Part shown: positions 54,623 to 64,000 of the stretch, in pieces
Layout: each line of letters opens with the position of its first letter
Position numbering within the stretch: the first letter of the stretch is position 1
Assembly: GCA_016744805.1 (NCBI GenBank)
Contig: JADGDQ010000006.1
Location: 105-64,104 of the forward strand
Direction: 5' to 3'
DNA: 64,000 nucleotides
Source: Sulfurovaceae bacterium
Lineage (GTDB): Bacteria; Campylobacterota; Campylobacteria; Campylobacterales; Sulfurovaceae
The notes under the pieces: model-generated
Database searches by the model: none
What the model was told of the DNA's origin: nothing
The model's input: the letters and a program-made list of their open reading frames with translations, nothing else
Translations under genes and position numbers: made by a program

Positions 54623-54641
54623 GTAGAGGGTATACCCCTAC
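54623..54641 (-). terminator. Candidate intrinsic terminator overlapping the stop codon of the DUF4214/DUF1566 gene
   Basis: A GC-rich hairpin GTAGAGG-gtata-CCCCTAC (one mismatch) is followed on the minus strand by TTTATTCTTT. Confidence 0.45.
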
Positions 54642-56251
54642 TCCACCTCTCTTACACAACGAGAGAAGTTAAGACCTCGAATCACATCTCCTTGTGGACC
54701 GTGTGTAATCGCTCCATCGACAATAACATAATCCTCACTACTTGTATCAAGCAAAGAGATATCTTTTGGGTCACTTCTTTGGGCTCCTGCTCCGTGAGCG
54801 TCCATCCATGTACTGTCCATATATCCCAAGCTTCTACCAAAACTCACATAAACCGCTGAAGCACCTGTGCCGTTAGATGATTTGTGAGTCGTACTACTCC
54901 AGTAGAATCCAAAGTCACTCGCTCCTGCTTCATTGGTGATAGCTGTGGCATTAAATATCGCATTGATTGCTGGGGATGCTGTGGTATCTGGTGAGCGAGT
55001 ATAGTCTACTATGCTCTGTAACTCTTTTGCATCAGGGAGTTTCCAGTCGCTATAACCTGCTAGGGTGGAGTTTTCACAATAGCTTATGGCACTATCCCAA
55101 TTAGTCTCTGTGCTATTATCATTTTTGTGCCACATAAGCTCTGTTGCACTATCTGTAATAGTCATATCACCATTATCCACAAAGCTATTTGTAGCATAAT
55201 TTTCGTTGTCTCGTACACACTGCACATAAAACATCTTATCTATGCCTCGTAGCTCCAATCCATATCCTTTGATCCGTCCATCTGCAAAATTGAGTCCAAA
55301 CATTGTAGCGTCACCATTCATAGTAGTAGAGACATAGTTTGTAGTTGTCGCCCATTGACCATCTATGATTCTCTCTCCTGCATCTGTATCTCCATAACCA
55401 AAGCCAAAGACTGTATTATCTATAAATGGCTCTAGTGAGCTTGTATCATCTCCTGTCTCTCCACTTGGATCAGAGCCTGAGAAGTTCATCAGAGAGTAGA
55501 TTGTTTTAATATCAGGCAATCTCCAATCACTATATCCTGCTAATGAGAGATTTGAACAATACGATATAGCATCACTTTGAGATAATTTATCAACCGCTTT
55601 TACCTCTCCACTCCCATCTCTATCGGCTGTCTGTTGCCACATAAGTCCAGTGACATTATCTGTTACAGTCAAGTCACCATTATCTGTATAACTCATACTA
55701 TTGGTAGTATAAGCACCATCTTGCCCACTACTAGCACACTCTGTGGAGAGACCCTTTGAGGTAAAACAGTTCTCTTGGGATGTATCTACTATGGTGTAAC
55801 TACTTTGACCTATGCCAAGTTCGCTTAGAGCCTCTTGTGTTTTACTCTGTAAGATAGTGGCATCATCACCAATAGCTCCATTGACAACGGCCAAAATAAA
55901 TACAGAATTAGAGACACTCCCACTATCTAACTCCCCTACCCAATAGTCACTCCCCGCACTATCAGGAGAGCGTTGGAAAAGGTTTGTATAGATAGCATCG
56001 ATAAAGTCTGTGCTAGTTGTACCCTCTGGATATTTTGCTTTTGTCTCCTCTTGGTCAAAAAAACTCTGAGCAATACTCTCTAGGCTCAAATTAGAGCTAC
56101 CCACCCAGTAGTTCAACCCTGCGATATCTGGAGTTCTATCAAATGTAGCAATATAGAGCCTTGTTACATTAGTCTGTGTCGCCACCTCTGCATACACACC
56201 TGTCACCATCAATCCAACTGCTGTACATAGCGTAAGAAATTTCCGTTTCAT
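54638..56251 (-). CDS. Secreted DUF4214 + 2x DUF1566 (Lcl C-terminal-like) protein
   Basis: There is a signal peptide and two DUF4214 units (ATFDRTPDIAGLNYW; LFQRSPDSAGSDYWVGELDSG). Two DUF1566-type units follow, with GYSDWRLPDIKTIYSL and GYSDWKLPDAKELQSIVDY. I prefer the ATG at 56251 over the TTG at 56257. Confidence 0.75.
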   Translation of the reverse strand: MKRKFLTLCTAVGLMVTGVYAEVATQTNVTRLYIATFDRTPDIAGLNYWVGSSNLSLESIAQSFFDQEETKAKYPEGTTSTDFIDAIYTNLFQRSPDSAGSDYWVGELDSGSVSNSVFILAVVNGAIGDDATILQSKTQEALSELGIGQSSYTIVDTSQENCFTSKGLSTECASSGQDGAYTTNSMSYTDNGDLTVTDNVTGLMWQQTADRDGSGEVKAVDKLSQSDAISYCSNLSLAGYSDWRLPDIKTIYSLMNFSGSDPSGETGDDTSSLEPFIDNTVFGFGYGDTDAGERIIDGQWATTTNYVSTTMNGDATMFGLNFADGRIKGYGLELRGIDKMFYVQCVRDNENYATNSFVDNGDMTITDSATELMWHKNDNSTETNWDSAISYCENSTLAGYSDWKLPDAKELQSIVDYTRSPDTTASPAINAIFNATAITNEAGASDFGFYWSSTTHKSSNGTGASAVYVSFGRSLGYMDSTWMDAHGAGAQRSDPKDISLLDTSSEDYVIVDGAITHGPQGDVIRGLNFSRCVREVE

Positions 56252-56312
56252 TCTCAACCCTTTGTCTTATATTTACATATTTTATATAGTACTCTTTAGA
56301 GAAAAACTTATG

Positions 56313-56339
56313 GTAACCAAAAGTAAATGGTTGGTAACA
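56313..56339 (-). promoter_or_regulatory. Conserved 27-nt direct-repeat motif, copy 1 (upstream of the DUF4214/DUF1566 gene)
   Basis: The minus strand reads TGTTAC-caacca-TTTAC-ttttg-GTTAC. It lies 61 nt upstream of the ATG at 56251. The same architecture occurs at 60356-60382 and 63285-63311. Confidence 0.55.
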
Positions 56340-56358
56340 ATAATTAAATTAAAAAATC

Positions 56359-57102
56359 TTAATGTTTTAAAGATTTATAGTTTCTTAAAATCCAGTATCT
56401 AAGAGCAAGAAACTCATTATTTTGATTTTTAAATGCATCTAGCAAAGTTTTTAAGAGTATTTCTATAGATTCATTTTTAAGTTTTTTATCCATAAGGCTC
56501 TCTTTAAAATCATCTATAATTGTTTGTCTTTTTTCATTCAAACTATCTCTATCTAATCCACACATCCCAATAGTATACTGCACTCTTTTATCTTTTGAAG
56601 CTATCACTCCATCATCAAAACTTAGCTTTTCCAAAACACTTTCTATCTCAGGGTGAATCATCTTTGGTTTTTCAAACTCTTGATATTGCTGGGCATAAGA
56701 GTGAATATTCTCCTTAAAGCTCTCTTCATAATAGACCTCATCTGCTAAAATTTCAAAATTATTACCTTTGTTGTGATTGCATCTATAACAACACCATAAA
56801 AGGTTATCCCAAGAGAAAGCCAACCAATAATATTTACTTTTAGGACGATAATGCTCCACTGTACTAGAACACTCTTCTAAATTATTATCTCTACACTCTA
56901 TAATTTTTTGCTCACAAAAAGCACACTTTTTATGATAGATAGTTTGGAGAGCCTCTTTTATATCTAGTTGTTTGTAGCGTTGGTGAAAATCTCTCTTTTG
57001 ATGGTATTTTCTATCTCGTATACATGTATTTCTTCTCGTATCAGTTTTCCTATCTATAAGAGAAGCAGGAATACTCTCTAAGTTTTTAGAAACTTTTATC
57101 AT
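56359..57102 (-). CDS. ptuB: Septu PtuB-like HNH endonuclease
   Basis: CAFCEQKI...STVEHYRPKS...WDNLLWCCYRCNHNKGN gives CxxC, H and N, then CxxCNxxK, which is the HNH/Zn-finger pattern. A 4-nt ATGA overlap joins it to the upstream ATPase gene. Confidence 0.75.
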   Translation of the reverse strand: MIKVSKNLESIPASLIDRKTDTRRNTCIRDRKYHQKRDFHQRYKQLDIKEALQTIYHKKCAFCEQKIIECRDNNLEECSSTVEHYRPKSKYYWLAFSWDNLLWCCYRCNHNKGNNFEILADEVYYEESFKENIHSYAQQYQEFEKPKMIHPEIESVLEKLSFDDGVIASKDKRVQYTIGMCGLDRDSLNEKRQTIIDDFKESLMDKKLKNESIEILLKTLLDAFKNQNNEFLALRYWILRNYKSLKH

Positions 57103-58514
57103 AAATCATTCTCTTTAAGATAATCATCTAACTCTTGATGTATCATAGCAATAATTTCTTCTTCAATAATCGCTTTTTTACCTTGTATGCGTTCTTTGAT
57201 AATATTGTGAATTTTACTAGAGATAAAATCTTCTCGTGTATCAAGATTATTGTCATTGTCTCTAGCCCTTGCCGTATCCATATCAAATAGTGGAGATGTA
57301 GAGAGAGAATTTGCCATAAGGTTTTTAATATCATTCATAGGTTGAGATATTTTAGTCGCTCCCTCTTCTTTATAGACTTTAAAAAATATCGCATCATCAC
57401 TAGCCCCAAGTACCGTCACCATACTATGTGTAACCATAATAAATTGAACCTCTTTAAATACTTCTCTCAAAGTATGGACAAAATCATATTTCCATCTAGG
57501 GTGTAGATATAAGTCTACTTCATCTATCAAAACAATAGCTTTTAATTTTGCCAATTCGGTAACATTTGGTTGATTTACTATCAATCTCGAAACCAAATCA
57601 TATAGCCATATAATAGTACTCTTATACCCCTCTGAAAGCTCATTGAAATCAATATCTCCACCATCGAAAATATTTAAATCTTCTCTTAAAATAGTTTTAT
57701 TTAGTACTGAGATAAACTCTTTTAGTAGTGAATGATCTCCTTGATAATTTTTGCCTAATTCATAAAAAGGATCTTTTAAGAGTGTTGTTCTTTGTGAATC
57801 ACTTGTATCAAATAAACCACTGTAACCATATTTATCAAATGTACGATAATCAATTTTATTTCTATTGATACCATAAGCAAATACATTTTGAATATCAAGA
57901 TTATTACTATAGTGTTCAGAAAATTCATCTTTTGCAGATAACTCCATACCACTATCTCTAATATGTTCGATTACAATGCCTGAATACTCTTTTTTGAGTG
58001 CCAATAAAATAGCTTGTAATAAAATTGTCTTCCCATCTCCATTTTCACCCACAAAATATATCTCTTTTTTCTCTTTGAGGTTTTGTATCTCTATATCTTT
58101 GAGGGAGAAATATTTTTTGATTTTGATGGAGTTCAAAAATGCTGTTTCTATATGAAAGATTGGAATTTTACTTACTATTTGAGAGTTTTTATCATTGGTT
58201 TTATTAAAAAAAGTATTTACATGTTGTTGTATAAAGTGTATACTGATTTCCATTTTTGTTGAATAGTAAGAAATATCATAAATATGTTCAATAATATAGC
58301 GTAACTTCTCATCTAATAATTTTAATAAGTTTTCTTCTTTTGCTTGTTCTAGTAAAGAAAAATTATCTATATATAGCTTTATAGTTTTAGAAAATTGTTT
58401 TATGTCCGTGTCAATATCAAGTGTATTGAATTGTTTTATAATACTTGCAGTAGAGATAAGATTTTCAATATCATATAGATTTTTATTAATCCTATTTAAA
58501 AGCTCTTTATTCAT
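57099..58514 (-). CDS. ptuA: Septu PtuA-like ABC/AAA_15-AAA_21 ATPase with an N-terminal extension
   Basis: Motifs are Walker A GENGDGKT (about aa 157), signature-like LSEGYKS, Walker B IVLIDEVDLYLHP and H-loop VTHS. About 140 aa precede the ATPase core. Confidence 0.75.
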   Translation of the reverse strand: MNKELLNRINKNLYDIENLISTASIIKQFNTLDIDTDIKQFSKTIKLYIDNFSLLEQAKEENLLKLLDEKLRYIIEHIYDISYYSTKMEISIHFIQQHVNTFFNKTNDKNSQIVSKIPIFHIETAFLNSIKIKKYFSLKDIEIQNLKEKKEIYFVGENGDGKTILLQAILLALKKEYSGIVIEHIRDSGMELSAKDEFSEHYSNNLDIQNVFAYGINRNKIDYRTFDKYGYSGLFDTSDSQRTTLLKDPFYELGKNYQGDHSLLKEFISVLNKTILREDLNIFDGGDIDFNELSEGYKSTIIWLYDLVSRLIVNQPNVTELAKLKAIVLIDEVDLYLHPRWKYDFVHTLREVFKEVQFIMVTHSMVTVLGASDDAIFFKVYKEEGATKISQPMNDIKNLMANSLSTSPLFDMDTARARDNDNNLDTREDFISSKIHNIIKERIQGKKAIIEEEIIAMIHQELDDYLKENDL

Positions 58515-58587
58515 AAACCATCCTCATAAATTATGAGATAGATTCTAGCATAAGATACTAAAATCTAATGTCTCTTTAGACCCCAAC

Positions 58588-59691
58588 TCAAAAATCAAAC
58601 TGCATACGAACCTGCATAATATCTTCACTCTCTACATCTGGCTCTGAGAGTGTGGCGTGGATGTAGTTTGTCATGATACGCAGATTGTCTGTAGTGTACC
58701 AGTTGAGACCTACTGTATAGTTTTTCTCTATGCTCTCCTCTTCGTCTTGGTCATCAAGGTCTAAATAGCTCATACGCAGAGCTAGTTCCCATGCACCCCA
58801 GCCTCCATCGGTCACAGGATTGAGAGGTTTGACGCGTGAGAAGATGGCTTTTTTGGCTTTGTATTGCTTGGATTCACCTGTGAGAAACCAGCTCCCTTGG
58901 AGATACCAACTCTGGAAATCATACGCTGTATCGATATTGTCAACTCCTATCCAAAAATACTCCCCTTGGAGTGCAAAGCTATCATAGATGATAGCACTCT
59001 CAATATCTACTCGTTGTCTATTTTGCACATCTTTTATCTTGGTGGAGACCAGTTTTCTATCAAAGAGATCTGACTCTGGTTCTGTATTGAGTGAGAGTGA
59101 TGCTCCATCATAGTCACTATAGGATGAGGCGACTCCTAGATGCAGGAGTTTGGTTTTGCTTGGGCGGTAGGCGTAGGTGGCTCTGGCTACTAGAGATCTC
59201 TCTGCATCTTCATTATCTATCAGTTCATCTAGTGATTGACCAAAAGCACCCATAGTCAGAGTGTAGTAGTGTGCATCATCTTTGATAGGATAGCGAACCT
59301 GTACGCCTAGTTTTCGTTTGCTCACAAATGCTTGAGCTAAAGAACGCTCCATAAAGGTATTGTACTTAGAGCTTGTCAATGCCTCTAGCCCTATAGGCTC
59401 TTTGATATTTCCTGCTTTGATAAAGAGCTGAGGGAGGGCTTCATACTCTAAGTAGACATCTTTCCAGTTGTTGCTTCCTGTGAAGCTATACTCTATCTCA
59501 TATTTGAGTGTAGGGAGTGCTTGACCTTTGAGAAAAACTCTTGCACGGCGAATGGCTTGATCATTTGTAGCTACCCCATCTTCATCATCAAACCAAGCAC
59601 TATCTGCAACAATCTGTCCTCCAAACTCAAAAGAGTCTTCAGCCAAAAGGAGACTCTGTAGTATCAAACATAAGAAAAGACTCTTTTTCAT
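58588..59691 (-). CDS. Phosphate-selective porin O/P (OprO/OprP) family outer-membrane protein
   Basis: There is a signal peptide. FEFGGQIVADSAWFDD...AIRRARVFLKG...YEIEYSF is typical of the Porin_O_P family, and the sequence ends in F. Confidence 0.7.
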   Translation of the reverse strand: MKKSLFLCLILQSLLLAEDSFEFGGQIVADSAWFDDEDGVATNDQAIRRARVFLKGQALPTLKYEIEYSFTGSNNWKDVYLEYEALPQLFIKAGNIKEPIGLEALTSSKYNTFMERSLAQAFVSKRKLGVQVRYPIKDDAHYYTLTMGAFGQSLDELIDNEDAERSLVARATYAYRPSKTKLLHLGVASSYSDYDGASLSLNTEPESDLFDRKLVSTKIKDVQNRQRVDIESAIIYDSFALQGEYFWIGVDNIDTAYDFQSWYLQGSWFLTGESKQYKAKKAIFSRVKPLNPVTDGGWGAWELALRMSYLDLDDQDEEESIEKNYTVGLNWYTTDNLRIMTNYIHATLSEPDVESEDIMQVRMQFDF

Positions 59692-59693
59692 AA

Positions 59694-60263
59694 CTACAGC
59701 TCCGTACCCATATTAACCAGAGCAAAAACTACAAGCATCATACTTACAATAAGCCCCAAAGAAAAAATAGCATAGGCTTGACGCAACCAATAATATTTGA
59801 TTTTAATCTCTGCACCTAATATATGAAGGTGTTGCAAAATATTCTCTTGGGTCTTCTCTGTAGAGAGTATCACCTCTTTTGCCTGTGCAAGATATTCCAT
59901 AGGAGAGAGTGAGGAAATATCCTGAAAATAGAGAATAGATGTATAGTTTTCCAAATACTCTTTGTGCATTATATTCTCTTTATATCGTGGTTGGATAGCT
60001 TTTGTAGCAAAAAATATAGATGCCATAGCTGTGATAATAATAGCAATAAATGGATACATCATCAAAGGGTGATTGAGTTGCATACCTGAAGCTGTAACGA
60101 TAACTGTGAGGATAAACCCATTAACAGAGATTAAGATACTCGCTTTAGAGTCAGCCAAAGCCGTTAACTCCAAGTTTGAACGCAAAGCATTTCTAAAGAG
60201 TGTCTCAACCGAACGAGGTTTTTTACTTGGTGATTTTTTTAATAAGTTCATATGGGTAGTCAT
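59694..60263 (-). CDS. Membrane protein with a DUF5706/PycTM-like domain
   Basis: NLELTALADSKASILISVNGFIL followed by 2+1 TM helices resembles, as I recall it, the Pycsar-effector (PycTM) / DUF5706 family. GAGGAG lies 6 nt upstream of the ATG. Its stop is 2 nt from the porin start. Confidence 0.5.
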   Translation of the reverse strand: MTTHMNLLKKSPSKKPRSVETLFRNALRSNLELTALADSKASILISVNGFILTVIVTASGMQLNHPLMMYPFIAIIITAMASIFFATKAIQPRYKENIMHKEYLENYTSILYFQDISSLSPMEYLAQAKEVILSTEKTQENILQHLHILGAEIKIKYYWLRQAYAIFSLGLIVSMMLVVFALVNMGTEL

Positions 60264-60355
60264 AAGATACTCCTCATTATTTTTTAAAATTATCTTTTCA
60301 CTCTAAGGAGTGGAAGATTGATAAGAGTATTGTATGATTTTTATTCAAACAGTGG

Positions 60356-60382
60356 GTAATAAAAAGTAAATCAACAGTAACA
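60356..60382 (-). promoter_or_regulatory. Conserved 27-nt direct-repeat motif, copy 2 (upstream of the DUF5706-like/porin operon)
   Basis: The minus strand reads TGTTAC-tgttga-TTTAC-ttttt-ATTAC. It lies 92 nt upstream of the ATG at 60263. Confidence 0.55.
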
Positions 60383-60400
60383 TTGAAGCATTTAGACGAT

Positions 60401-62137
60401 TTATACCTTCGCCCAAGTACCAAATGGTTGCTTTTCAAACTCCATTGTGCCATCTTTTCCTTTGTAGATATTTATCCATACTTGCCAGTTTTCATTATCC
60501 ATATCTGGATAATCTACACGGTAGTGACTACAACGGCTCTCTGTTCGCATTAGAGAGGCTTTGAGTTTCATCTGGGCAGAGAGTATCATATTGGTTGTCT
60601 CATGAGCCAAACGCAACTCATGCAGTGATGAGGCTTTGAGCATAGGGGAGTGATGGCTCTGTAGCTCCTCCACATAAGCAAGGGCTGATTGCATCATTAG
60701 CTCTTTTTTGATATAGAGAACAAAATTAGGAATCATCACCCCTTGCAGTGTTTGGGTCACCCACGCAGGAGAGTAGCCTGACTCTCTATAGAGTGGTGCT
60801 AAAATCTCTTCTTTTATTTTATTTACTTTGGATTTAGGTATTTTGGGCATAGCAATAGTTTTGGCATACTTAGCTGATGCTTCACCTGCAATAGCCCCTT
60901 GCACAGAAGAACCTGCCATAGAAGAGCCTATTTGAGTATAGATAGCTCCAGCCATATACGAACCTAGTGCATCTCCTGCAGCGTAGAGACCTTGGATAGT
61001 TGATTCACACTGCTCATTGATAGGAACAAGACCTTCAGACTTATGGATAGACAATCCTGCCGATGCACCACCTACATTGGTACCATTGCTACCCGGAGGG
61101 GGTCCTCTTCTCTCATCTCTTGGGGGGGGACCTCTGTGTTCACCTCTTGGGGGATGGTCTCTTCTTTCTCCATGCATTTGACTAAACTCTACAGGTCTAA
61201 AGGGTCCTCCCACAACAAAAGTTGCTCCTTGTTGAGGGGGTCCCATCATCACTGGTGGACCTTTTTTGTAGGCTTGGTAGTTGAGGTCTACTCCTAAATC
61301 ATGACGAATCTCTACACTAGTAGTACTTGGAACTTGTTCAAACATACCATGCCAATTATCAAAAGAGGCCGCAGAGTTTTTATCAGAACCCACATGCCCA
61401 TCATTCCACTCTTTGCCTGTTACCTTTGCACCAATATTATATGCCATAACAGTACCATCATGCGTCAAGTCACTAATAGGAAATCCATTGGGTTTAAAGC
61501 CCCCTGCCCCTGTACACAAAATCACACTTTTAGCACGAAAGAGATAGAGGCTCTGTTCGTCTATACCAAAGCCCATAGCTCCTGCTATTTTGCCCTCTTC
61601 TTTGATGAGATGGGTAATCATAATCCGTTCCATCACAGGAATCTCTCGCTCTTTGATAGGGTGAGTGAGTGGGTCTCTACAGAGTACTTGGTCAAAGAAC
61701 CCCCAAGAGCGAAGCTCTTCTACTCTTGCTTTTGAGTGTTCTGCCATCTGTTTGGTGTAGATGGCATTGTTGGTTCCTAATGATGAGCGAGATACTTTGT
61801 TGGTAAATTCATCAAGTGATACACCAGACTCCTTGGCATCAAAACTAAAAACACCCTTGGCAAATGGAGTCTGTCCTGATGTCCCTAGACCCCCTTTGAC
61901 CACGAGCATCACATCTGCTCCTGCGTCTCTAGCTTTTGTGGCAGCAAAAACCCCTGCAACGCCTCCACCAATTACCAAAACATCACTTTGATACTCTTTT
62001 GTCTCAAATCCTTTGGGGTCTATAGATGGAAGGGTTGATTCCCCCTCTCCATTGAGACCAACTGTTGCTAGTGTGGCTACACCTGCTATACCCAAAAAGT
62101 CTCTTCGTGAGAATCCTTCGTTATTTGATTCTTTCAT
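60401..62137 (-). CDS. Tat-exported FAD-dependent oxidoreductase (fumarate reductase/succinate dehydrogenase flavoprotein-like)
   Basis: The Tat motif is SRRDFLGIAG, the dinucleotide fold is VLVIGGGVAGVFAA, and the C-terminal context is RCSHYRVDYPD. The Pro/Arg-rich repeat insertion HGERRDHPPRGEHRGPPPRDERRGPPPG is unusual. Confidence 0.8.
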   Translation of the reverse strand: MKESNNEGFSRRDFLGIAGVATLATVGLNGEGESTLPSIDPKGFETKEYQSDVLVIGGGVAGVFAATKARDAGADVMLVVKGGLGTSGQTPFAKGVFSFDAKESGVSLDEFTNKVSRSSLGTNNAIYTKQMAEHSKARVEELRSWGFFDQVLCRDPLTHPIKEREIPVMERIMITHLIKEEGKIAGAMGFGIDEQSLYLFRAKSVILCTGAGGFKPNGFPISDLTHDGTVMAYNIGAKVTGKEWNDGHVGSDKNSAASFDNWHGMFEQVPSTTSVEIRHDLGVDLNYQAYKKGPPVMMGPPQQGATFVVGGPFRPVEFSQMHGERRDHPPRGEHRGPPPRDERRGPPPGSNGTNVGGASAGLSIHKSEGLVPINEQCESTIQGLYAAGDALGSYMAGAIYTQIGSSMAGSSVQGAIAGEASAKYAKTIAMPKIPKSKVNKIKEEILAPLYRESGYSPAWVTQTLQGVMIPNFVLYIKKELMMQSALAYVEELQSHHSPMLKASSLHELRLAHETTNMILSAQMKLKASLMRTESRCSHYRVDYPDMDNENWQVWINIYKGKDGTMEFEKQPFGTWAKV

Positions 62138-62765
62138 CTTCTCTCCTATAACTTTGCAGTAGCATCCAAGAGGCAGTAGAGGCTACAAGAACTATCCATA
62201 ATGTTTGTGCATCATTTATGTGTCGTCCCATATCAATAGCATGCCAAGATGCCAAAAAAATAAAAAGGAGTGAAGTAATACCATGGAGGAGTTTCCAACT
62301 CCTATATTTCATCCCTAATTTATGACGAAAAAGAGAAGTAGCCCCTAGAAAAAATATCAAAAGATATGCAATCAGACCTACTATCTCTCCTTGTGTTTCA
62401 AATGTAGTCAATAATTTTATCAGAGCATCTTGGGGGAGTAGACCTGCTTCAAAAAATCTTGGTAAGACAATAAAAAATGGGTGAAGCATAAAAAAGAGTA
62501 CAACTACATACCCTATATATTTATGTATTCTAATAATAGTTTTGAAGCGATAAGACTCTAATGGTGTCTTAGGAATGCCTGATAGAAAGAATTGTAAATA
62601 GAGTAGATAAAGAGCTAAAAGCGTGGCAAGTCCAAGAGAGTCTTTGAGAAAACTACGAAATGGATACTCACCCAAAAACCAAAAAAGAGTTGGCAACCCC
62701 ATAAAGATAAATAGTACTCCAAAGAGCGTAGAGTGTTTACTAGTGTTTTGCATAGCTACCTCCAT
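62121..62765 (-). CDS. Ferric-reductase-like (MsrQ/YedZ-type) transmembrane heme-b protein
   Basis: It has about 6 TM helices with conserved His pairs (IHKYIGY...MLHPFF; LLHGITS...WHAIDMGRH). It overlaps both neighbouring genes. Confidence 0.6.
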   Translation of the reverse strand: MEVAMQNTSKHSTLFGVLFIFMGLPTLFWFLGEYPFRSFLKDSLGLATLLALYLLYLQFFLSGIPKTPLESYRFKTIIRIHKYIGYVVVLFFMLHPFFIVLPRFFEAGLLPQDALIKLLTTFETQGEIVGLIAYLLIFFLGATSLFRHKLGMKYRSWKLLHGITSLLFIFLASWHAIDMGRHINDAQTLWIVLVASTASWMLLQSYRREDERIK

Positions 62766-62971
62766 GAGACTACAACAGGAATCATCTTTTCAGGTGAAAT
62801 AATAATTGCATCTACAGGACAGTACATACGGCATAAGTGGCAGATTTGACAATCCTCCACATAGGCTATAAATGCTTTTCCTGTTTTGGCATCTAAGCGG
62901 ATAACATCTGTAGGACATGCTCTCACACAATCACCACAACCAATACAACCGCGTATAGATGTAATAGACAT
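62756..62971 (-). CDS. Small 2x[4Fe-4S] ferredoxin
   Basis: The Cys motifs are CIGCGDCVRACP and CQICHLCRMYCP. The protein is 71 aa. Confidence 0.85.
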   Translation of the reverse strand: MSITSIRGCIGCGDCVRACPTDVIRLDAKTGKAFIAYVEDCQICHLCRMYCPVDAIIISPEKMIPVVVSWR

Positions 62972-62984
62972 TCTATTTTCCTAT

Positions 62985-63230
62985 CTATCTTTTAGGAGGA
63001 TTTGTTGGTTTACATGCAAAATACTTACCATCAGGAGTATTACTACAAGTCCCCTCTACTGTATCACCTCTAGGAGAAGTCATAGAACAGCTCGACCCTT
63101 CATCTTGACCTTCACAAATAGAGATTGCTTCAGCAGGTGGTGTTCTTTTTTCACCTTGTTGTGGTCGTTGTTCTTGTGCAAAGCCAAATGTTAGAGCTAC
63201 AAGAGCTACTGTTAGGATAATCTTTTTCAT
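62985..63230 (-). CDS. Small secreted Cys-containing protein (hypothetical)
   Basis: There is a signal peptide (MKKIILTVALVALTFGFA). The mature part of about 60 aa has 4 Cys and is rich in Pro, Gly and Thr. No family is recognised. Confidence 0.55.
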   Translation of the reverse strand: MKKIILTVALVALTFGFAQEQRPQQGEKRTPPAEAISICEGQDEGSSCSMTSPRGDTVEGTCSNTPDGKYFACKPTNPPKR

Positions 63231-63284
63231 TTTTTTTTCCTTCTGTTTAGATTTTAAATTATATTCTTATAACTCCAATAGCGA

Positions 63285-63311
63285 GTAACAAAAAGTAAAC
63301 TAATGGTAACA
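63285..63311 (-). promoter_or_regulatory. Conserved 27-nt direct-repeat motif, copy 3 (upstream of the small secreted protein/ferredoxin/flavoprotein operon)
   Basis: The minus strand reads TGTTAC-cattag-TTTAC-ttttt-GTTAC. It lies 54 nt upstream of the ATG at 63230. Confidence 0.55.
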
Positions 63312-63340: not shown

Positions 63341-64000
63341 TCAACTACCCAAAGCAGTCTGCAACGCCTCTACTGTAACTCCTAGAGTCGTAGCTGCTGT
63401 TTCATAGTCTGGCTCACCTTGGCTAGGGTCACCTAGTGCCGACATTAATGCCTCTTCGCTCATACCCAATATCTCTGCTGCTGCTGCAAAATCTGGTTGA
63501 CCGCTAGGTGCATCTGTATCTCCACCATCAGGTTGTTGGTTGCCCATATCTCCATCTGGAAATACAACGACTCTTGTCGCATCATCACCACGATAAGTAC
63601 TCGCATCACCCTCTGGTGTAGATGCTACATCGCCACCACGCACTAGACGAACATGATGATAAAAGACTTCTATATCAGAACCTGTAGAGACCTCTTGGGA
63701 TTTAGTATCAAAGACCACAGAACCTGCTCCGTGTAGGTCATTACCCTCTGTATCTGTATTATAACCAAAAGCAAGAATCCAAGCATAGATATTCCCACCA
63801 TCTATATCACTCTCTTCACCCACTAATGGATTGGATGTACTCGTCCAAAAAAATGGATAATCAGTTTGACCTTTTATGTTTGTAAGTGTTGAGATATTAA
63901 ATACACTCGTATCTATAGCTGGAAAGACCCCACTATAATCTACAATACTCTGCAACTCTTTTGCATTTGGCAATCTCCAATCATCATATCCTGCATAGGT
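63341..64000 (-). CDS. DUF1566 (Lcl C-terminal-like) domain protein, partial (N-terminus beyond the window end)
   Basis: The frame stays open upstream of the track Met to the window edge (…TYAGYDDWRLPNAKELQSIVDYS), so the real start lies outside the window. The C-terminal acidic tail carries a duplicated A-x2-LG-x3-EAL-x2-ALG unit. Confidence 0.7.
   Translation of the reverse strand, partial: TYAGYDDWRLPNAKELQSIVDYSGVFPAIDTSVFNISTLTNIKGQTDYPFFWTSTSNPLVGEESDIDGGNIYAWILAFGYNTDTEGNDLHGAGSVVFDTKSQEVSTGSDIEVFYHHVRLVRGGDVASTPEGDASTYRGDDATRVVVFPDGDMGNQQPDGGDTDAPSGQPDFAAAAEILGMSEEALMSALGDPSQGEPDYETAATTLGVTVEALQTALGS

Follow-up and report, generated by a model that had tools for sequence, protein, structure and literature searches.

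Among the described regulatory systems that come closest to the locus analysed here, the box bound by Escherichia coli PhoB ends 10 bp before the -10 hexamer. PhoB has been documented to bind head-to-tail and to contact sigma-70 (PMC4415409), and for E. coli OmpR, GTTACATNTN has been quoted as the consensus, tandem units of 10 bp accommodating several dimers next to one another (PMC12936845). ArsR of Helicobacter pylori has been described without a crisp consensus, AT-rich DNA and topology being said to direct the protein (PMC11162790), and no defined ArsR consensus was found in the H. pylori literature. In Sulfurimonas hydrogeniphila, the thiosulfate-responsive OmpR-family two-component system (TCS) SulRS controls the sox genes; two TTACA direct repeats lie within a 43-bp footprint (-57 to -14) verified by electrophoretic mobility shift assay and DNase I, and the kinase senses the substrate of the periplasmic pathway that is regulated (PMC12936845). 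The present analysis concerns a repeated 27-nt motif in a 64,000-nt stretch of DNA (the window) from a Sulfurovaceae bacterium, which forms part of contig C62 in a metagenome-assembled genome of 2.33 Mb, 94 contigs and 34% G+C. The motif is real, and it is very probably the core of an operator through which an OmpR-type response regulator (RR) encoded on contig C88 activates its own gene together with about eight envelope and periplasmic redox operons. By sequence, this system is closest to ArsRS, by promoter architecture to PhoB and by half-site to OmpR; the regulon and operator are new for a familiar class of regulator, and the mechanism proposed is a textbook one.

The three copies in the window lie on the minus strand at 56339-56313 (copy 1, TGTTACCAACCATTTACTTTTGGTTAC), 60382-60356 (copy 2, TGTTACTGTTGATTTACTTTTTATTAC) and 63311-63285 (copy 3, TGTTACCATTAGTTTACTTTTTGTTAC). 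A search of the window for TGTTAC-N6-TTTAC-N5-RTTAC with at most one mismatch returned these three matches, compared with a mean of 0.00 and a maximum of 0 in 100 dinucleotide-preserving shuffles. Each copy is intergenic, 18-29 nt beyond the stop of the preceding gene, and the distance from the end of the motif to the downstream ATG is 61, 92 and 54 nt for copies 1, 2 and 3, respectively. The original prediction had reported three copies with these coordinates, strand and sequences, intergenic and uniformly oriented 54-92 nt ahead of an ATG, and all of this was borne out by direct reading, with no copy expected from the shuffles. It had also described three half-sites on one helical face; the direct repeats and the shared face stood, but the count did not, the operator consisting of four half-sites in two 21-bp units.

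The full operator reads T-GTTAC-N6-TTTAC-N5-rTTAC-N6-TTtrA-N10-TAyAAT. Read directly and by pattern match on the minus strand, it covers 56302..56339 at copy 1 (TGTTAC-caacca-TTTAC-ttttg-GTTAC-cataag-TTTTT; about -60 to -23), 60345..60382 at copy 2 (TGTTAC-tgttga-TTTAC-ttttt-ATTAC-ccactg-TTTGA) and 63274..63311 at copy 3 (TGTTAC-cattag-TTTAC-ttttt-GTTAC-tcgcta-TTGGA), the fourth, weaker half-site (TTTTT, TTTGA and TTGGA, respectively) standing 6 nt past the third. The -10 hexamers, on the same strand, are TACTAT for copy 1 (56286..56291; 21 nt past half-site 3 and 10 nt past half-site 4), TACAAT for copy 2 (60329..60334) and TATAAT for copy 3 (63258..63263). With the -10 hexamer set at -12 to -7, the array extends from about -60 to -23, its two 21-bp units lying on one helical face and occupying the position of a -35 element upstream of the predicted transcription start sites. 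A scan with the TTGACA/TATAAT sigma-70 consensus did not call the three window promoters, which was taken to reflect an absent -35 element and not an absent promoter; no TTGACA-like hexamer was found 16-18 nt upstream of any of the nine -10 boxes that accompany the motif in the genome. The possibility that GTTAC serves as the -35 element of an extracytoplasmic function sigma factor was rejected, the gap to the -10 being 21 nt.

Nine sites are present in the genome as a whole. The pattern TTAC-N7-TTAC-N6-TTAC gave nine matches and none in a reversed-sequence control, and the same result (9 versus 0) was obtained when the core of three half-sites was searched for with at most one mismatch, whether or not TAnnAT was required 21 nt downstream. 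Relaxing the search to two mismatches yielded no extra genome site having a -10 hexamer, and no weaker or single-box sites in this genome rose above the reversed-sequence control. All nine lie between genes, in the orientation of the gene that follows, and in each of them TAnnAT lies exactly 21 nt past half-site 3 and 10 nt past half-site 4, the hexamers being TATAAT and TACAAT (two each) and TAAAAT, TACTAT, TATTAT, TATACT and TACCAT (one each). Information content across the nine sites is high only from about -61 to -7 and the flanks are unrelated, which means that the element does not belong to any longer dispersed repeat. The genome-wide scan suggested alongside the original prediction thus found every site to be promoter-associated; the envelope/redox regulon that had been proposed was correct as to the kind of target but not as to size, with nine promoters rather than three. 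In its strict form, GTTAC-N6-TTTACTTTTTGTTAC, the motif was found at five places in this genome, and a search of one genome each of 185,579 other species yielded only five more, one of them in a Sulfurovum metagenome-assembled genome.

The ninth site, on contig C88, is located 53 nt upstream of the gene for a 223-amino-acid OmpR-family RR, and this gene is followed by that for a 420-amino-acid histidine kinase (HK). The RR comprises a receiver domain (PF00072 at 1.9e-24) with canonical D8/D9, phospho-acceptor D51 and K100, and a Trans_reg_C winged helix (PF00486 at 9.5e-21); it passes no equivalog model, scoring 149 bits against a cut-off of 331 with the NCBIfam OmpR model. The best PDB match of its DNA-binding domain (DBD) was 2K4J, the DBD of H. 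pylori ArsR (103 bits, 59% identity), with a nearly identical recognition-helix stretch, KSIDV(M/I)IGR(I/L)RSKIE, and the best match to the ArsR DBD within this genome is the C88 RR. The HK contains HAMP, HisKA and HATPase domains and passes the NCBIfam ArsS-family model NF038389 over its full length (354 bits versus a cut-off of 250), whereas it reached only 60 bits with the PhoR model, for which the cut-off is 334. Its periplasmic domain of approximately 125 amino acids proved, on alignment, to be poorly conserved among orthologs save for RFHE and a short His/Arg/Pro patch.

Conservation was assessed in a sample of 201 Sulfurovaceae genomes, with RR orthologs recognised at E <= 1e-85. Such an ortholog is present in 12 of the 201 (about 6%), and promoter-type tandem operators were found in eight genomes (G000, G008, G064, G123, G153, G161, G181 and G183), all of them among the 12. 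Two others (G004 and G198) carry drifted tandem operators, for example TGTAAC... and GTTAG/GTTGC, and a further two (G023 and G058) have single boxes. The consensus of the 27 distinct tandem sites from the eight genomes is T-GTTAC-yAAsCr-TTTAC-TTTTk-rTTAC-yCAynr-TTtrA-N10-TAyAAT. Half-site starts follow one another head-to-tail at 11, 10 and 11 nt in all 27, and the fourth half-site, which ends 10 nt ahead of the -10, takes the form TT(T/G/A)(G/A/T)(A/T). Several positions that the search had left free are nonetheless conserved, namely the TT of half-site 4 (27/27), a purine before half-sites 2 and 4 (27/27) and T at -60 (25/27). As judged from the sequence, this layout is of the pho-box/OmpR class II type, and the proposal that the motif is an OmpR/PhoB-type winged-helix site overlapping the -35 region most probably holds, in view of the direct repeats, the promoter register and the linked regulator.

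The box is retained in the promoters of RR orthologs with 67-89% identity. G008 and G161 have it in tandem, G025 has a tandem form with a single additional spacer base, and G004, G023, G064, G153, G181 and G183 have one TGTTAC-N6-TTTA(A/C) unit ending 10 nt before TA(T/C)AAT. Because single-unit boxes are retained at orthologous regulator promoters, always 10 nt before the -10, the 16-nt unit is taken to be the functional module. The operator also recurs upstream of orthologous target genes in regulator-bearing relatives, as a comparison proposed with the original prediction was meant to reveal. It precedes the gene for a small four-Cys secreted protein (81-91 amino acids) in six genomes, including G008, G064, G153, G181 and G183, and in drifted form in G004 and G198; this protein occurs in exactly eight of the 201 family genomes, all eight of which bear the regulator. 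Genes for a PycTM-like protein and an OprO/P-type porin follow the operator in four genomes, with the same gene pair in G161 and G153; the 26-mer of copy 2 is identical upstream of the ortholog in G008, and variants of it occur in G161 and G153. DUF4214/Lcl_C lipoprotein genes carry the operator in five genomes (G064, G123, G153, G161 and G183), and the ferredoxin operon and the regulator gene are further recurrent carriers. Furthermore, the RR-HK genes adjoin target genes in three relatives (G161:C38, G064:C79 and G198:C82), the order in the last being Lcl_C, Cys-rich protein, ferredoxin, haem-b protein, flavoprotein, RR and HK. The system is distributed patchily within genera, and this speaks for its co-inheritance as a module. 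The pattern was matched once in each of seven genomes that lack the regulator, in no case with a -10 hexamer, and five of the seven share one coding-like sequence. A second motif group, GTTACATACTTTTTACCCTTTGTTAC (G017, G059, G076, G103 and G120), was rejected as unrelated, as it has no -10, stands in a coding-like conserved context and is found in genomes with no RR ortholog.

Compared with the E. coli pho box, the operator has the same head-to-tail repeats with a period of about 11 bp, tandem boxes at strong promoters, a box in place of the -35 and what appears to be an autoregulated phoBR-like operon. It differs in its half-site (GTTAC/TTTAC and not CTGTCAT), in having targets other than phosphate genes, in a kinase of the ArsS family and not PhoR, and in that pst uses another box. 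The half-site GTTAC equals that of the OmpR consensus, and a porin gene is among the targets in both cases; however, the arrays of OmpR are situated upstream of the -35, at about -100 to -40, whereas the array here reaches -23, and the C88 RR is not an OmpR ortholog. The F1 site of ompF begins TTTACTTTTGGTTAC, which equals the centre of copy 1. With H. pylori ArsRS (HP0166/HP0165), the system shares an ArsS-family kinase, the related DBD and, as predicted here, control of many envelope and outer-membrane proteins and autoregulation. Unlike ArsR, which is essential and present in every strain, the C88 system is confined to a minority of genomes, has a sharp operator and possesses a sensor domain that is unconserved even among orthologs. 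As only 12 of the 201 genomes have a C88-type RR, the system is regarded as an accessory paralog and not as the ArsR equivalent. H. pylori ArsR has almost the same recognition helix, and the (G/T)TTAC direct repeat therefore provides a concrete hypothesis for the half-sites of the ArsR family. SulRS is likewise an OmpR-family system of free-living Campylobacterota with direct repeats; its consensus TTTAYATTTAKKAGWTACAMTTA, gene neighbourhood and sox regulon are different, and no sox gene is among the nine targets found here.

In the favoured explanation, the ArsS-family membrane HK would be the partner of the RR, which would act when phosphorylated. Each 21-bp unit would presumably take one RR dimer, and the RR bound to the array would recruit RNA polymerase in a class II mode of activation like that of PhoB at pho boxes, its promoter-proximal protomer being positioned for contact with region 4 of sigma-70. 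The RR-HK operon would thereby be positively autoregulated. Activation was favoured over repression because the spacing is invariant, no -35 is present and the -10 boxes are often weak. Several points weigh against this explanation. As the RR gene is on another contig, its link to the operator rests on autoregulation, co-occurrence and linkage in relatives; the RR gene of G198, which stands immediately after the flavoprotein operon with its operator, itself lacks a box. Because the RR-bearing genomes are phylogenetically clustered, the co-occurrence counts suggest more independence than there is. Nor are the nine sites independent events: three promoter pairs resemble duplicates (C48+/C48-, C62:64932/63389 and C62:56417/C65), which brings the number of independent origins to about six. 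Contig C65, of 2.9 kb, might moreover derive from a co-binned relative; its promoter and the 5' segment of its DUF4214 gene have approximately 75% nucleotide identity to the C62 block, the remainder being more diverged. Finally, an array overlapping the -35 could be compatible with repression too.

In the latter case, the same RR would act as a repressor that covers the -35 and spacer and blocks polymerase, the regulon being on when the kinase is inactive, a mode of action that is considered unlikely. It would agree with the overlap between the array, at about -60 to -23, and the polymerase footprint, and also with the behaviour of ArsR from H. pylori, to which the DBD is most closely related among characterised proteins and which represses many envelope genes and negatively autoregulates (PMC9449129, PMC11162790). 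However, a -35 hexamer is missing from all of the promoters, and in several the -10 box is weak (TACCAT, TACTAT and TATACT), as expected of activator-dependent promoters. The distance to the -10 is also exact to the base pair in the 27 sites and in the single-box promoters, which speaks against occlusion because face-specific contact with polymerase needs such precision and occlusion does not.

It is quite improbable that the operator is bound by a different protein, either an orphan regulator of the HP1021/CemR type or another of the OmpR-family regulators of this genome (those on contigs C72 and C41). HP1021 homologs are described as conserved across Epsilonproteobacteria, with the box TGTTWCW, and the best Cj1509 box is TGTTACA (PMC6052347). 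The first half-site, TGTTAC(T), fits TGTTWCW in three of the nine sites, but the other six read TGTTACC or AGTTACC and fall outside it; furthermore, the operator is confined to genomes with an ortholog of the C88-type RR, whereas HP1021 homologs are class-wide. A four-fold direct repeat of 10-11 bp suits tandem winged-helix binding. As for other OmpR-type RRs, of which the genome encodes at least two more, the motif precedes the C88 RR gene and its orthologs and is absent in front of the C72 and C41 regulators.

A role of the motif as a pho box, controlling a Pho regulon under a PhosR/PhoB-type regulator at phosphate limitation, was also considered and is highly improbable. This had been the guess of the original prediction, and two observations agree with it: one target is a porin of the OprO/OprP family (PF07396), and a box ending 10 nt before the -10 has the textbook geometry of the E. 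coli pho box. The guess was not supported by the phosphate genes themselves. The pstSCAB-phoU operon, located at C59:5567-10013 by way of pstB (TIGR00972) and then annotated, lacks the motif, there being no GTTAC/TTTAC array in the pstS promoter region. Instead, that region carries GTTTCCAAATTGTTTCC at C59:5595-5611, roughly 65 nt ahead of where pstS starts, with a third repeat, GTTTT, after it; GTTTCC-N5-GTTTCC is found nowhere else in the genome. The pho box of Campylobacter jejuni PhosR reportedly reads GTTTCNAAAANGTTTC, to which GTTTCCAAATTGTTTCC would be a near-perfect match. GTTTCCAAATTGTTTCC is thus likely a C. jejuni-type pho box for pstSCAB-phoU, and the GTTTC-type box mentioned in the original prediction does exist in this genome, at pstS, but is not the motif studied here. 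As the phosphate regulon has a box of its own, the motif must be something else. The resemblance to C. jejuni PhosS/PhosR is accordingly that of a direct-repeat box of an epsilonproteobacterial OmpR-family regulator, with a comparable box at the pstS of this genome; the PhosR box itself is GTTTC-N6-GTTTC and is found at pstS and at none of the nine promoters. The nine targets include neither phosphatase nor phosphonate nor pst genes, and only the porin among them has any connection with phosphate; the kinase belongs to the ArsS family and not to PhoR (60 bits versus 334). In addition, the regulon is present in only about 6% of family genomes, whereas phosphate control is, to our knowledge, universal. 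Membership of the OprO/P family alone should therefore not be taken as a sign of phosphate regulation.

It is scarcely credible that no regulator is involved and that promoter cassettes or a small dispersed repeat were merely spread by duplication, for although the three promoter pairs are alike beyond the half-sites and two of them precede paralogous genes, conservation stops sharply at -61 and at -10, the element is common to unrelated genes, the spacers have drifted whereas half-sites and spacing are fixed over 27 sites in eight genomes, and no copy was found outside a promoter, nor any terminal repeats or transposase. Promoter copying explains part of the similarity within the genome, and not the pattern across genomes.

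Four of the nine promoters of the regulon serve genes for DUF4214 and/or Lcl_C secreted proteins or lipoproteins. The targets in the window are all on the minus strand. Copy 1 precedes a gene (54638..56251) for a secreted protein of 539 amino acids with DUF4214 (PF13946 at 2.6e-21) and two Lcl_C (DUF1566) domains (PF07603 at 2.7e-41). The second target is an operon at 58588..60263, encoding a PycTM-like membrane protein (59694-60263; PF18967 at 7.4e-17) and an OprO/P-family porin (58588-59691; PF07396 at 1.6e-56). The third is a four-gene operon at 60401..63230, assigned with Pfam, whose first gene encodes an 81-amino-acid four-Cys secreted protein (62985-63230) and whose others encode a 2x[4Fe-4S] ferredoxin (62756-62971), a ferric-reductase-like haem-b membrane protein (62121-62765) and a Tat-exported SdhA/AprA-like flavoprotein (60401-62137) with the Tat motif SRRDFLG. 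Distant PDB relatives of the flavoprotein are SdhA, the alpha subunit of PAPS reductase and AprA. A fourth target, a 477-amino-acid Lcl_C lipoprotein gene, has its 3' part in the window at 63341..64000, and its operator, TGTTACCATCGGTTTACTTTTTGTTAC, lies at C62:64932-64958, 828 nt past the window end. The remaining targets with recognisable products are the RR-HK operon on C88, a DUF4214 paralog on C65 and a 428-amino-acid Lcl_C lipoprotein on C68. At C48:4142-5171, between pfk and argH, two convergent paralogous genes encode small cytoplasmic proteins of 145 and 119 amino acids that are 30% identical and gave no family match; each has its own operator, and the two promoters are near-duplicates even downstream of the -10.

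The 81-amino-acid protein, for which no Pfam or NCBIfam match was obtained, belongs to a family with four invariant Cys and an invariant PRGDT loop (C-x5-RGD-x5-C) between two of them, resembling disintegrin RGD loops. Only two open frames in the genome encode the peptide EHR(G)PP(P): it lies in the periplasmic loop of the C88 HK (residues ~55-75; RGERVHKMRRGYQEHRPPPH) and in a Pro/Arg-rich insert of the flavoprotein (window 61140-61245; HGERRDHPPRGEHRGPPPRDERRGPPP), and in the G008 kinase the unit is repeated. This sharing was noticed post hoc and may be due to chance through composition; a feedback contact between kinase loop and flavoprotein insert by way of this peptide is a side possibility.

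As to the signal, we would guess at an anion in the periplasm that arrives through the induced porin and serves the induced flavoprotein complex as substrate. The suggestion that the kinase senses this substrate, in the way that SulRS senses thiosulfate for the sox genes, was made because the TCS genes of G198 directly follow the flavoprotein operon and because an anion-type porin is co-regulated. In its widest form, this idea would make the TCS genes and their targets a horizontally exchanged island for sensing, respiring and sticking, in which the kinase senses the anion used by the flavoprotein complex, the porin admits it and surface proteins attach the cell to a surface or animal host. 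The flavoprotein complex would then be of a new kind that faces the periplasm and consists of the ferredoxin, the haem-b membrane protein and the Tat flavoprotein, and attachment would be the task of the lectin-like Lcl_C lipoproteins, the DUF4214 proteins and the disintegrin-like four-Cys PRGDT protein. So extended a scenario is doubtful. Uncultured bacteria of the Sulfurovum type are dominant in sulfidic and vent environments; for them, the analysis provides a sharply defined candidate regulator-operator pair and a closed list of nine promoters, and the regulon ties together several uncharacterised proteins, namely the Tat-flavoprotein complex, the Cys-rich protein, the PycTM-like protein with its porin, and the DUF4214/Lcl_C proteins.

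Some minor observations were made in relatives. In genus g11 (G023:C62 and G058:C103), a single box, GTTACTTGCGGTTTAC-N10-TATAAT, lies before the gene for a secreted YceI-like protein of 188 amino acids, the sole conserved target there besides the regulator. At G028:C39, a TTTAC-N6-TTTAC repeat in the opposite orientation stands about 25-45 nt before the ATG of an RR homolog with 56% identity, and may be a related box used otherwise, for example in negative autoregulation, in a distant relative. Distant homologs of the PycTM-like protein (55-58% identity) were found in seven genomes lacking the regulator (G088, G117, G145, G159, G173, G177 and G187), none of them with the operator; they are part of longer frames (277 amino acids in G088 and 481-513 in the other six), and the domain may be fused to another module in these genomes.

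Between the porin operon and operator copy 1, the window also contains a Septu-like defence pair (56359-58514, minus strand), composed of an AAA_15/AAA_21 ATPase of 471 amino acids and a PtuB-like HNH nuclease of 247 amino acids (NCBIfam PtuB at 3.6e-15). A diverged syntenic copy of this arrangement, with ATPase, HNH protein, operator and DUF4214 gene, is located on C65 (1014-2547) and could represent a paralogous block or a co-binned relative. The OmpR-family regulator gene on C72 (10798-11460) directly follows a gene whose product ends in LTPQQRTKLIEL, a CpxP/Spy-like LTxxQ sequence, an arrangement suggestive of a distinct envelope-stress system that includes an accessory protein in the periplasm.

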